Below, in pieces: positions 5,989 to 11,707 of a stretch of 64,000 nt of DNA. Made by a program: the position numbers and the translations under genes. Origin of the DNA: a virus (Duplodnaviria; Caudoviricetes); the IMG/VR virus record IMGVR_UViG_3300028797_000104, positions 1 through 64,000 of that record. One strand, written 5' to 3'. The notes beneath the pieces are model-generated. The model was not told the DNA's origin. It searched no databases and was given only the letters and a program-made list of their open reading frames with translations. Position 1 is the stretch's first letter. Each line of letters begins with the position of its first letter.

Positions 5989-5997
5989 TGATTGTAG

Positions 5998-7959
5998 GTG
6001 ATTAACATTCAAAAACATATTATTTCAGAAGCATTTGAACAATTAAGTAAATCAGCAAAGTTGAATGAATCAAAACTTTCTGAAAGATATTCCTTTCCAG
6101 AAGTAGATGATGCATTAAATCATTTTTGGAATGATCTCGGAAAAGATCCTGAAGTAGATGATGTAATTGGATTTTTAGAGGATGAATACCCTGATTGGGT
6201 TCCAACTAACCCGGAAGATTATGGTAGATGGTATCATGATGTAGCAGGAGAAATTTCAGCAAGATTAAGTGAATCAAAATTCACTGAAGCTAAAATTGAC
6301 AAGAAAAAATTTAACACAGGTAAATATGAATACTTTGTGGAGATTAAATATTATGAAGAAGAGCCAGATACATTTCATGTAAGAGCAAATTCTATATCAG
6401 ATCTAGAGGATAAATTATCTAATGATGATTATATTGAATGGTTTGATGTGCTTGAAGATTCTAATGATTATGCAGAAGAAGAACTTGACGAGTCAAAATT
6501 TACAGAAGCTTCTAATTCAAAATATAAGTTTGATAAAGATGATATTGATAAGAAGATAATGGCTAAAGATTCTGAACTTCATATTAGACTTAATGATGCA
6601 GCAAAGTTGGCTCAATATCTTGATTCAAAGGGAATTTCTTATAAGATCAGAAATATTCAAGATCCAGTAACTAAGTAGAAACTAAAAGGGTTCATTATTC
6701 ATGATTATTTTTATCCAAAGAAAAATAAATCAGAAAAAGTAAAAGAATCAAAACTCACAGAAGCTCCAATGGATGTAAAAGATTATGCAGCTAGACTTAG
6801 AGCAAGAAAAGCAGAAAAAGATCAAAATTCATTAGAAAAAATTAATTCCCAAATAGATCCGGACATGTCTATAACAGATCAACTTCAAGTATATTTTGAT
6901 GAATTAGTTCCCGCTCAAGGCAAAGCAGATACGGTAGCTGGAGAATTAGTCAGAGCTATGATGAGAATTCTTTACAGAGATTATAATGATGGAGATTTAT
7001 TTTATTCAGGATATGGTAAAGAAACTTGCGGTGGCTCGGTAGTATATTTAATAGATAAAGTTGAAGATCTTGAAAGACCCTTTTCTAATATAGTAGAAAA
7101 TCAATATGAAGATCAATATTATACGACTGAATTAGAAGATGCAGCATATATATTAATTGAATATTTAAATAATCATCCTGAATTATTTACTCAAAAGAAT
7201 GAAGAAGACAGTAGAAATGTGGATGAAAATAGGTTAGATGAATATTTTAGTTTACCTCTTTATGAATTTGAGCCTGATACTTCATATGATGAATCTTATT
7301 ATGATGTAAGCGATGATGATATTGATGAATTTATTCGTGGAGTGGTATCTTCTGATTTATCTAGTGGAGACGTAAATCGTTGGGCTAGAGATGGTTGGAC
7401 TATTGTTGATTTAGACAAAGAAGATTATGATACTCTTCAGGAACTGTGGGATCGTTGGTTCAGAGATTTCTTAGCTGATTATGAACGTCAAGAAGAAGAT
7501 GAATACGAAGATGAAGAAGATTTTGAAGAATCATTAAATGAATCCGATAAACCTCTATCAAAGATGAATATTAATAAACTTCGTGAGATAGCATTATCTT
7601 TAGGAGCAGATAAGAAAAGATTATATGGAACATCAAAACAAGGTTTAATGGTAATAATTGATAAATTACGTAAAGATAACTAGAAAAGAGGAAATGATAT
7701 TATGGCTAAAGTAGCAGAAGATTTTGAATTAGGTAATCTTGAAAAGATGGGCACCAATGAATATGAGGCAAATAAAAATAGAGATAAGCACATTAAAATG
7801 TATAGAAAGTTTGCTAATATTTCAGAGTCTGAACCCATCACCGAAGAAACAATCAATGAATATGCATTAAATAAAACTGCTACATACTGTAATCGAGAAC
7901 CTGATAGAATTAAAGCAGAAATTTTAGGACAAAGGTATAGTGAATATGAGCAAGAATAA
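5998..7959 (+). CDS. Acidic multi-module putative internal head protein
   Basis: Track ORFs 5998, 6769 and 7702 are in one frame, separated only by TAG. Repeated ESK(L/F)(S/T)E linkers and a Rho-N/HeH-like module (LSKMNINKLREIALSLG). 7702-7959 has its own SD and may also be translated separately. Confidence 0.65.
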
Positions 7960-9006: not shown

Positions 9007-9645
9007 ATGTCGATGACTCGAGAAGAAAAATTTGCAAAACAATTAATAATGCGTAATTTATCTGAACAAGGATATCCGACTTATGCTAAATTATTAAATG
9101 AATTTGATTTAAATTTAACTGAAAATCCAAATGTAATTGCATTCATGGAACCTGCAAAAGGAAGAATCGTAGTTAATAGAGGACTTGAGGAAAGTCAAGT
9201 TTCTGTAGTAATTCGACATGAGATACTTCATTCGTATTTGAAACATGAAAAAAGATTATTATAGAAATTAGCTAGAGATTCTGAATTAGATTATGATGAA
9301 TTAATAAATACAGGGATGCAAGATGTACTAGATGATTTAAAAAATAAATTATATAGTAATGATGATTTTAATATTGCGGCAGATTACGAAATATCAAATT
9401 TAGCATATACTGATGTAGATAAAGATACTATAAGATAGATTAATATCAATGGTTAGATATTATCTGGATTAGTTACAGAAGATCAACATCCTGATTGGGT
9501 AGATTATTCAGTAGAGGATATGTATTAGGAATTAGTAAATCAAAGAAAAAGAGATGAAAACAAATTAGATGATTCGATGCATCTTGGTTAGTTAAAAGAT
9601 AAAACTACATTTATAGATTTGAACGGGGTGGTATATGGAATATGA
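9007..9645 (+). CDS. DUF2201 N-terminal-type metallopeptidase
   Basis: IRHEILH (HExxH) and FNIAADYEISN motifs. Confidence 0.8.
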
Positions 9646-10130
9646 AAATATTAAAAGAAGAAACTAAATACCATCATGGTTCATTTAAAGATTTACAAAC
9701 ATTCTTAGATAAGAATGGAGATCCATACACACTAATACAATCTGATTATCCTCAAGATAAAAACAATAACAGTAAAAATAATTCTAATAAGTCTAGTGAT
9801 TCTCAGAAGGATAATTAGAACGATACTTAGAGTAATAGTCAAAAGCAAAATAATAATAACAATTCAAATAATCAATCAAGTAATTAGAATCAATAGAATA
9901 GTTAGTAGAATAATCAATCTAATAATCAGTAGAATTAGAGTAATAATTAGAATCAACAACAGAATAATAATAATTAGCAATAGCAAAATTAGAATTCATA
10001 GCAACAAGATTAGAAAAAAGTTCCACCGGATCCAAATGCATCTTATGTTGATGTCAGTACAGGATTTGAATATAAATGGGATCCATAGAAAAATCAATTT
10101 ATAAAGGTAGGTAAATATCGTGCCAAATAA
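9642..10130 (+). CDS. Gln/Asn-rich low-complexity linker protein
   Basis: ATG overlaps the upstream stop; N/Q/S tract with about 15 TAG codons mixed with CAA and CAG; ends in TAA. Confidence 0.8.
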
Positions 10131-11175
10131 AGATGTACATATTTATATTGATGATGATACTGGATTCAGATATATTTTTGATGGAACTAATCTTGTAAGG
10201 CTTCCTGACGATTCCGGAAGTGGTAATGGATCTGACGATTCCAAGCAAAACCAGAATAATAATAAATCTGATGAAAATGATTCTTTAAATGATGCGAAAG
10301 AATAGCATGATAAGGAAAAAGAACAATCAGATAAAAACGAAAGAAAACCGTAGATTGGCGACTCCGATGATTTAAGTGATGAAGATGCGGAACGGGAAAA
10401 ACAAGCAGAACAAGAACGAGAAGAAGACGGCGAAGAGGAAGAAACTCCGGAAGAACGTAAAGCAAGACTTGATAGAATAAAAAGATATTTATCCAATGAT
10501 GAAATTGGAGATCAAATTAATTATGAAAGCGAGAAAAAAGTTTCCGCAGAGAAACAAAGAAAGAAAGCTGCATAGAAAAAAGAAATTGAAAGAAATCTAA
10601 AAGGAGCAGAAAGAAATGCTCACGTTATTTCTTTACTTGGAAAAGATCTGAAATAGTTCTTGGGTAAACTTCTTGGTAAATCTGAACGTAATGCAACTTG
10701 GAGAAAGTATAATGCAAATTATGCTAATGTAGGTTTAATTCGTCCAGGATATAGATATGATCCAGTTGGTAAAATTCCTGTTATTCAAATATATCTGGAT
10801 CAATCAGGATCTTGGGGTGAAGATGATATTAAATTAGCAAATGATATACTTAAATCAATTCAAGAATTTGAGGATAAGAATTTATTAAAAGTTCAGGTAT
10901 ATTATTTTGCAAATCATATTTATGATAATGCAGCGGCGGCAAGAGACGAAGGTGGAACGGCTGCTGGGACTGAATTAATGCAATAGTTAAATGAACAAAA
11001 ACCTGAAAATGTTATAGTAATAACGGATGGCGATTTTGATCATTTTGGTTTGAATGGTTCCTATACTGCACCTGGTGGAGTTTGGATGGTTTTCCGAGCA
11101 GCAAGATCAGAGTAGCTTATAAAAGCACTTAAAGGTAGACTTCAAACAAAAATTTATGATATAGATAGAATATAA
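10120..11175 (+). CDS. vWA-domain protein (DUF2201 C-terminal type)
   Basis: MIDAS motif IYLDQSGSW, plus GGT and VIVITDGD; acidic coiled-coil N-terminal half. Confidence 0.85.
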
Positions 11176-11200: not shown

Positions 11201-11707
11201 ATGGATATAAGACAATTAGTAAAAAAATATGAATAGTATTTAAAAAATGATGATTACGATGGATTATTTGCAGCATGTAAAGATTCTAATGAAAGAAAAG
11301 ATTTAATTGAATTTTTATATAATAAATGTGGTATAGATGTATTACCTCATATGACTTCTATTCCAGCTAAAATGTTTTAGAATGTTGAAGGTATTTAGTC
11401 AATTAGAATTCCTGATAACATAACCGATATTGGAGATAGGGCTTTTATTGGATCTTTGATTTCTAAAGTGGTTCTTCCAAATACCATAAAGAAATTACCT
11501 ACTGGATTATTTGAAAATTGTTTTAATTTACATAAAATATTTATTCCAGATTCAGTTACGGAATTTTCTTAGAATGTATTTAAAGGAACACCGGATGATA
11601 TATTAATTGGTGCTAATTTCAGATCAGATAATGCTTCAAAATTAAGATTCCCTCAATCAGAACTTGATTTTTATAGGCAGCATTTAAGATTTAGGAGGAA
11701 TCCATAA
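11201..11707 (+). CDS. BspA-type leucine-rich repeat protein
   Basis: Repeats SIRIPDNITDIGDRAF, KVVLPNTIKKLPTGLFENC and KIFIPDSVTEFSQNVF. Confidence 0.85.

Follow-up and report, generated by a model that had tools for sequence, protein, structure and literature searches.

How would three separately encoded proteins be held together where their relatives form a single polypeptide chain? The question is raised by a locus in the first 64,000 nucleotides (the window) of the IMG/VR virus record IMGVR_UViG_3300028797_000104, a 151-kb genome of ~29% G+C. Here, a gene for a MoxR-type AAA+ ATPase is followed by three genes encoding a zincin-like peptidase, a linker protein and a protein with a vWA domain (Table 1). 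To our knowledge, accounts of the MoxR/peptidase-vWA pair in large phages have so far dealt with a fused co-chaperone only. The original prediction, made from the sequence of the window, read the three genes as a split version of such a partner, rejoined by two pairs of like motifs at the facing ends of neighbouring proteins. The feature is real and conserved; its enzymology is ordinary and its architecture unusual. That the end motifs act as docking elements joining the split pieces is well motivated by comparison of the sequences of relatives, and we tentatively favour a joint built from one motif of each of two types.

A peptidase-vWA partner of MoxR encoded by three genes

The peptidase and the vWA protein match separate parts of the one-chain family phrog_1314 (394 positions), the former at positions 55-155 and the latter at 161-374, and are thus recognised as pieces of one family. 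Profile searches with the window proteins also recover fused relatives. In agreement with the original prediction, these matches show that the window system is the one-chain peptidase-linker-vWA partner of MoxR in split form. The ATPase scores 34.1 bits with Pfam AAA_5 (cut-off 22) and 25.4 bits with AAA_3, slightly below the cut-off of 27, and matches the phrog_1297 ATPase (E=7e-18). Its gene lies directly upstream of the peptidase gene in nearly all related loci with enough flanking sequence, in every architecture class. The peptidase reaches 17.7 bits with DUF2201_N (PF13203), under the cut-off of 23.2, while profile-linked fused relatives reach 23.6-36.4 bits; the vWA protein has no PF09967 match at E<=1, and its relatives reach 13.6-20.8 bits, the cut-off being 26.4. 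H71, E72 and H75 of the peptidase are invariant across 43 orthologues. In the vWA protein alignment, D227, S229 and S231 of the metal ion-dependent adhesion site (MIDAS; D227-x-S229-x-S231) and the downstream D303 are invariant, and T280 is nearly so. The window proteins are regarded as a divergent phage branch of the DUF2201-type families that is not built as one chain. Searching PDB sequences with the vWA profile returned chance-level matches only, and GenBank phages gave no match to the window genes at the DNA or protein level.

Read with TAG as glutamine (TAG=Q), the ATPase gene and the three open reading frames (ORFs) behind it are closely packed on one strand. As predicted, the three ORFs have separate starts and stops (TGA, TAA and TAA), and they lie in different frames. 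An ATGA overlap joins the peptidase gene to the linker gene, which in turn overlaps the vWA gene by 11 nt, and a purine run resembling a Shine-Dalgarno sequence stands upstream of each of the three starts. The TAG=Q reading is supported by in-frame TAG codons within conserved domains, four in the peptidase domain match and two in the vWA domain match (tblastn), and by a transfer RNA (tRNA) with anticodon CTA, likely the suppressor underlying this code. All four genes, from MoxR to vWA, terminate in TAA or TGA. The CTA tRNA (positions 92251-92324; labelled Pyl by ARAGORN) belongs to a 16-tRNA cluster at G000:C1:88862-98691 of the genome, beyond the window. Two readings of the layout were tried and discarded. 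That the three ORFs are joined by a programmed frameshift or by read-through is rejected, as frame relations vary among relatives and normal-code phages have genuine stops at these places; so is a middle gene that is an intron or a non-coding spacer, its ends being conserved as protein with mostly synonymous change.

Table 1. The split peptidase-vWA locus and its neighbours, in window coordinates
Feature	Position	Strand	Details
MoxR-type AAA+ ATPase, 350 aa	7940..8992	+	Walker A GHAGVGKT, Walker B LFLDEF
Zincin-like peptidase piece, 212 aa	9007..9645	+	5 TAG=Q codons; HEILH at residues 71-75
Motif A, peptidase C-terminal module	9580..9642	+	HMM 42.7 bits; consensus hhG.h.D.TTF[IV]D.NG..YG[IV], then stop
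Linker protein, 162 aa	9642..10130	+	15 TAG codons; A' module, Q/N low-complexity tether, B module
Motif A', linker N-terminal module	9666..9746	+	HMM 64.1 bits; consensus HHGSFKDLQTFLDKNG[DN]PY.LI
Q/N-rich disordered tether	9747..10025	+	pLDDT <50 in model of relative P0031
Motif B, linker C-terminal module	10026..10115	+	HMM 65.4 bits; consensus PDPN..YVD..TG.EYKWD...N.F.KV
vWA piece, 351 aa	10120..11175	+	GTG start; B' module, acidic disordered stretch, vWA domain
Motif B', vWA N-terminal module	10135..10212	+	HMM 44.4 bits; consensus HIY[VIM]DD.TG..YIF[DN]G..LVK[IL]
vWA (DUF2201-like) domain proper	10675..11172	+	tblastn domain mapping and vWA protein alignment
LRR_5-type leucine-rich-repeat protein	11201..11707	+	conserved neighbour downstream of vWA gene

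Four end motifs and their distribution among relatives

The four junction ends carry motifs of two types, A-type (A and A') and B-type (B and B'). The segment of A at 9580-9636 is identical to that of A' at 9672-9728 in 10/19 positions with no gap, and B at 10044-10082 to B' at 10144-10182 in 7/13 positions, exactly as originally predicted in coordinates, letters and identities. This likeness is beyond chance. In local alignments with 2000 shuffles, A and A' score 52 (z=6.3; 0/2000 shuffles reach it) and B and B' score 41 (z=5.4; 1/2000), while A-type and B-type segments show no similarity to each other (z -0.9 to 1.2). Profile-profile comparison across relatives likewise links A to A' (E=4.5e-5) and B to B' (E=3.3e-6) and finds no match between A and B'. 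None of the four end segments matches a Pfam family at E<=10, and a search of the 151-kb genome with hidden Markov models (HMMs) of the motifs found them in no other protein. Among relatives, motif A is kept in 67 distinct peptidase tails (of 323 homologues, most of them 205-220 aa long) and 43 stand-alone vWA proteins begin with B'. An exhaustive profile search found 684 relatives of the vWA protein, and the majority of its stand-alone homologues, at 28-56% identity, start with B'. Contigs from ENA/Logan show the same context, also in normal-code phages: AAA+ ATPase, peptidase of ~210 aa, linker of 153-275 aa, vWA protein of ~310-370 aa and LRR_5 protein.

The linker orthologues, 102-307 aa long, are conserved at both ends and free in length and composition in the middle, which by lineage is rich in Q/N, in GNQ repeats, in S/D/N, or is PEPPEP-like or acidic. 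Comparison with L063, a 94% relative, locates the constraint: the peptidase differs by 27 synonymous codon changes and one non-synonymous, A' (linker residues 10-32) by five synonymous and none non-synonymous, while the tether holds all the gaps and most of the non-synonymous changes of the linker. Because of this substitution pattern, the middle gene is taken to be coding, with purifying selection acting on both ends. Between its conserved ends, the middle protein consists of a disordered, hypervariable tether, which agrees with the exchangeable Q/N tether first proposed.

The architectures of the family were counted in loci pooled from the exhaustive profile search, 46 IMG/VR loci and 80 Joint Genome Institute (JGI) metagenome loci; domains were mapped by tblastn and motifs by four small HMMs, and dereplication at 95% vWA-domain identity gave 76 clusters. 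The layout of the window, three genes with all four of the motifs (hairpin ends), is found in 17/76 clusters; it reaches down to ~35% identity and occurs in normal-code and recoded phages, so that the motifs are not unconserved scars of a duplication. Seven of the 76 clusters have hairpin ends on two genes, a peptidase-tether protein with an A'-type end facing a vWA protein with a B'-type start; at one such junction, the first protein ends in ...IIHGTFKNGKFYDRNGNEIIP and a stop, and the second begins with MDIYIDDATGKYYTWNG. One chain without motifs is found in 18/76 clusters, and a single cluster (L013/P0295) has one chain in which one A'-type and one B'-type motif lie ~20 residues apart; it comes from a phage that reads TGA as tryptophan, with TGA codons at conserved tryptophan positions. 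Just 19 of the 76 dereplicated loci are thus fused, and for the phage group of the window the initial premise that one chain is the usual form of such partners fails. A-type and B-type modules are equally numerous in each architecture, and an A-A' or a B-B' pair alone at a junction was seen in no locus among the 76 clusters. A narrow scan with the linker alignment yielded just two loci already in the set, and a single-protein scan of IMG/VR found nothing, its patterns lying in low-complexity sequence.

The largest class, 31/76 clusters, has two genes with unrelated helical ends, and two further clusters have three genes with helical ends. The two-gene helical class, which includes L010, L021, L026, L029, L036, L041, L047, L049-L051, L058, L059 and L062, has peptidases ending in ...Y.DAWN.V...L....D.E.L and vWA proteins starting with M.I.DIL..LG...A..GA.EAI.AIL.SR. 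These ends are probably a second, unrelated docking pair. In the three-gene helical form L057 (1331-4235), the 302-aa middle protein is acidic and of low complexity, its N-end resembles the N-end of the vWA protein and its C-end that of the peptidase, and the junction pair itself appears to have been duplicated. Because the hairpin class and the unrelated helical class each have three-gene forms, the tripartite design arose at least twice, and the recurrence of a disordered middle with two unrelated types of ends speaks for a common design logic.

Fission may also have been reversed, as one locus suggests. L033 (2583-4532), one of the 18 one-chain clusters without motifs, encodes a fused protein of 650 aa whose middle is long and of low complexity and which lacks all four hairpin motifs, yet in a quick concatenated-domain tree it is nested among three-gene hairpin loci, grouping with L068 and L016 (Shimodaira-Hasegawa-like support 97-100). 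This position suggests a re-fusion with loss of the end modules. Another apparent fusion was rejected: P0024 (547 aa), a candidate linker-vWA fusion that would have been a B-B' form in cis, results from a TAG stop called as glutamine in a normal-code relative (L005:278-1921 and L006:471-2114, short normal-code contigs with public TAG=Q gene calls). This artefact means that database 'fusions' in the peptidase-vWA family need to be checked at the DNA level.

Several findings support a docking role of the end motifs: the hairpin motifs are confined to junction termini, they are lacking from the 18 fused forms without motifs and from the rest of the 151-kb genome, and their loss in L033 fits modules that are dispensable once the pieces are covalently joined. 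Moreover, the AAA+ gene adjoins in all classes, with hairpins or none, which argues against the modules being simply MoxR-binding tags.

Some peptidase homologues of 256-345 aa (P0101, P0104, P0106, P0111, P0128 and P0138) have extra sequence beyond the A motif, either a helical tail ending in ...EE.ID.L.N or, in P0104 and P0111, another domain of ~60 residues; evidently, end modules can be combined. In two related three-gene loci, a module is cut by a stop or a frame change, B' in L042/L108 (L042:3549) and B in L119, which could reflect sequencing error or the decay of one module. In loci with three genes, A' and B' are often preceded by a short hydrophobic-x-Glu stretch (for instance ILKEE, LLEA, LTES or LIEE), reminiscent of the prohead-protease site of phage T4. 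The stretch is found at 9642-9665 of the window and at linker or vWA N-termini in L007, L009, L011, L016, L020, L024 and L034, and is absent from the two-gene loci and from the vWA protein of the window itself.

Proposed pairing of the end modules

The explanation that we favour is a MoxR co-chaperone of the metallopeptidase-vWA type that gene fission has divided into three proteins with translational coupling. A module of 20-30 residues, predicted to fold as a three-stranded beta-meander, stands at each junction end, and the modules would hold the pieces together non-covalently. The basic joint would consist of one A-type and one B-type module and be used twice in the window, with A' at the N-end of the linker placed on B' at the N-end of the vWA protein, and B at the C-end of the linker placed on A at the C-end of the peptidase. 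The resulting order would be peptidase, joint, disordered tether, joint, vWA. The assembled complex would probably help to assemble or process virions, a role that has been proposed for its fused counterpart in jumbo phages. As a whole, we give this explanation a little less than an even chance.

The census speaks for this explanation. If the modules dock, the elementary joint should be heterotypic, because at two-gene junctions an A'-type end faces a B'-type start, because the two types stand side by side in the single chain of L013, and because they are equal in number throughout. AlphaFold2 adds a structural indication. For the A'-helix-B' segment of the fused relative, modelled with an alignment of linkers, the predicted template-modelling score (pTM) is 0.52 over 83 residues, of which 29 are disordered, with motif strands at 70-85 in the predicted local distance difference test (pLDDT). 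Since this pTM exceeds what two independent units of 22 residues could give, it points to one joint A'-B' arrangement. In P0031, the short linker (102 aa) of a close relative, A' (pLDDT 85-89) and B (92-94) are each modelled as a three-stranded meander. Both models would fit a wiring of A' with B' and of A with B.

Several observations weigh against this explanation. The short connection between the fused motifs could partly inflate the pTM of 0.52, and the P0031 model has a pTM of 0.37, does not fix the placement of A' relative to B and yields structural matches that cover B alone; the modules may then be autonomous mini-domains with other partners. Fold searches with both models gave no match to a solved structure with Z>2.2 (VIA) or E<0.66 (Foldseek). 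Co-variation, evaluated by a mirror-tree/partial Mantel test on 19 three-gene loci, is mixed: the partial r is highest for B-B' (0.38, p=0.001), followed by A-B' (0.30, p=0.006), and the two pairings of the favoured wiring are weak (A'-B' 0.19 and A-B 0.15), as is A'-B (0.16). Lastly, the other classes place putative cognate modules at facing ends, and the facing ends here are the like pairs.

The lead of B-B' in the Mantel test and the like pairs at the facing ends also speak for the wiring first proposed. There, A would pair with A' and B with B' in two orthogonal heterodimers of like with like, so that peptidase, [A:A'], tether, [B:B'] and vWA follow in gene order. The homology of A with A' and of B with B', together with the unlikeness of the two types, suits it as well, and the layout is the one expected after fission through gene duplication and complementary truncation. 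It is, however, hard to reconcile with the seven two-gene clusters and the fused L013, where just one A-type module lies next to one B-type module, with the want of any locus having an A/A' or B/B' junction alone, and with the partial correlation of 0.00 for A-A', the sole pairing without any support from the Mantel test. The idea of two orthogonal like-with-like pairs thus fits the relatives poorly, and we regard it as unlikely.

Heterotypic joints could also be wired differently from the scheme that we prefer. A might bind B', which would mirror the two-gene relatives and leave the linker self-closed through A' and B; the linkers might form a multivalent head-to-tail Q/N scaffold capped by the peptidase and the vWA protein; or the four modules might gather in one beta-rich hub. 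The second-strongest co-variation, A-B', and the weakly positive A'-B point this way, the middle protein has its A-type module before its B-type module in the same order as the cis module of L013, and an acidic disordered stretch of ~150 residues within the vWA protein itself would make a separate tether not strictly necessary. AlphaFold2, on the other hand, gives no confident placement of A' and B in the short linker, and a self-closed linker offers no evident reason for its strict retention and the tight packing of the genes. We consider these wirings improbable. Just as doubtful is a reading of the modules as retained duplication remnants that bind a third party (a structural protein, the LRR_5 protein or the prohead) or act in folding or targeting: each module is predicted to fold alone (pLDDT 85-94), an L-x-E-like stretch recalling capsid targeting or processing often stands before A' and B', and the genes lie between head and neck genes, but fused relatives whose neighbours are the same have no such modules, the re-fused L033 has lost them, they are always placed exactly at junction termini and found in no other protein of the genome, and MoxR adjacency is independent of them.

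Neighbouring genes and known systems

An LRR_5 (PF13306) gene is annotated at the same position, downstream of the vWA gene, in L002, L005, L007, L009, L011, L013, L014 and L016, and some loci have two or three copies (L010, L016). Its product may be a client or an adaptor of the peptidase-vWA system. On the other side, a strongly acidic ORF of 655 aa (TAG=Q; 5992-7959) reaches the region before the AAA+ gene.

The closest relatives of known description are fused. The available portions of Iyer et al. 2021 (Viruses 13:63; PMC7824862) report a fused metallopeptidase-vWA protein together with MoxR in group 2.2 jumbo phages and propose a role of this pair in virion assembly and processing. The window shares with that system the order of MoxR, then a zincin peptidase on the N-terminal side and a vWA domain on the C-terminal side, in large T4-like phages, and its position between head and neck genes fits the proposal. 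Where those portions describe a single chain, the window has three genes (many relatives have two), dedicated end modules and a tether protein of its own. With the Pfam families DUF2201_N (PF13203) and DUF2201 (PF09967), the window shares the HExxH N-domain, the vWA-like C-domain with its MIDAS and the MoxR neighbour; unlike them, its pieces stay below the cut-offs and do not form one chain. A literature search in a limited library turned up no account of split forms, of such end modules or of a tether protein.

The peptidase-vWA family shows repeated fission and re-fusion, and at least two unrelated kinds of end modules lie exactly at the cut sites. If the ends dock, the family would provide a clean natural case of gene splitting without loss of assembly, a new small heterodimerising module without a known fold relative, and a handle on the effect of tether length and composition in a MoxR-vWA machine. 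Three small soluble proteins offer an easy experimental entry, although the virion-assembly function is still conjecture. Gene splitting with presumed reassembly has a counterpart in mitochondria, where the split of cox2 has left complementary genes and their products are believed to come together again as heteromers (PMC9895450, as far as its available text goes). The cox2 pieces described there are halves of one folded membrane protein, while the cuts of the window fall in or near a disordered region and the cut ends carry separate small modules.

The nearest functional analogue is found in the docking domains of nonribosomal peptide synthetases (NRPS) and polyketide synthases (PKS). In the accessible parts of PMC6195595 and PMC7496407, these are short modules at C-ends and N-ends that set the non-covalent order of subunits and fall into several unrelated types, which the hairpin and helical ends of the phage proteins would parallel. 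The Pfam and fold searches gave no relation in sequence or fold between the two systems, their enzymes, host and biology differ, and one of the window subunits is a disordered tether alone. It is conceivable, with a chance that we put somewhat below that of its opposite, that the A-type and B-type modules are an undescribed, portable beta-meander docking pair of ~25 residues each, with which phages reassemble split proteins and swap tethers. If so, this pair and the helical one would form a natural 'split and dock' toolkit beyond NRPS/PKS, reusable in protein engineering.

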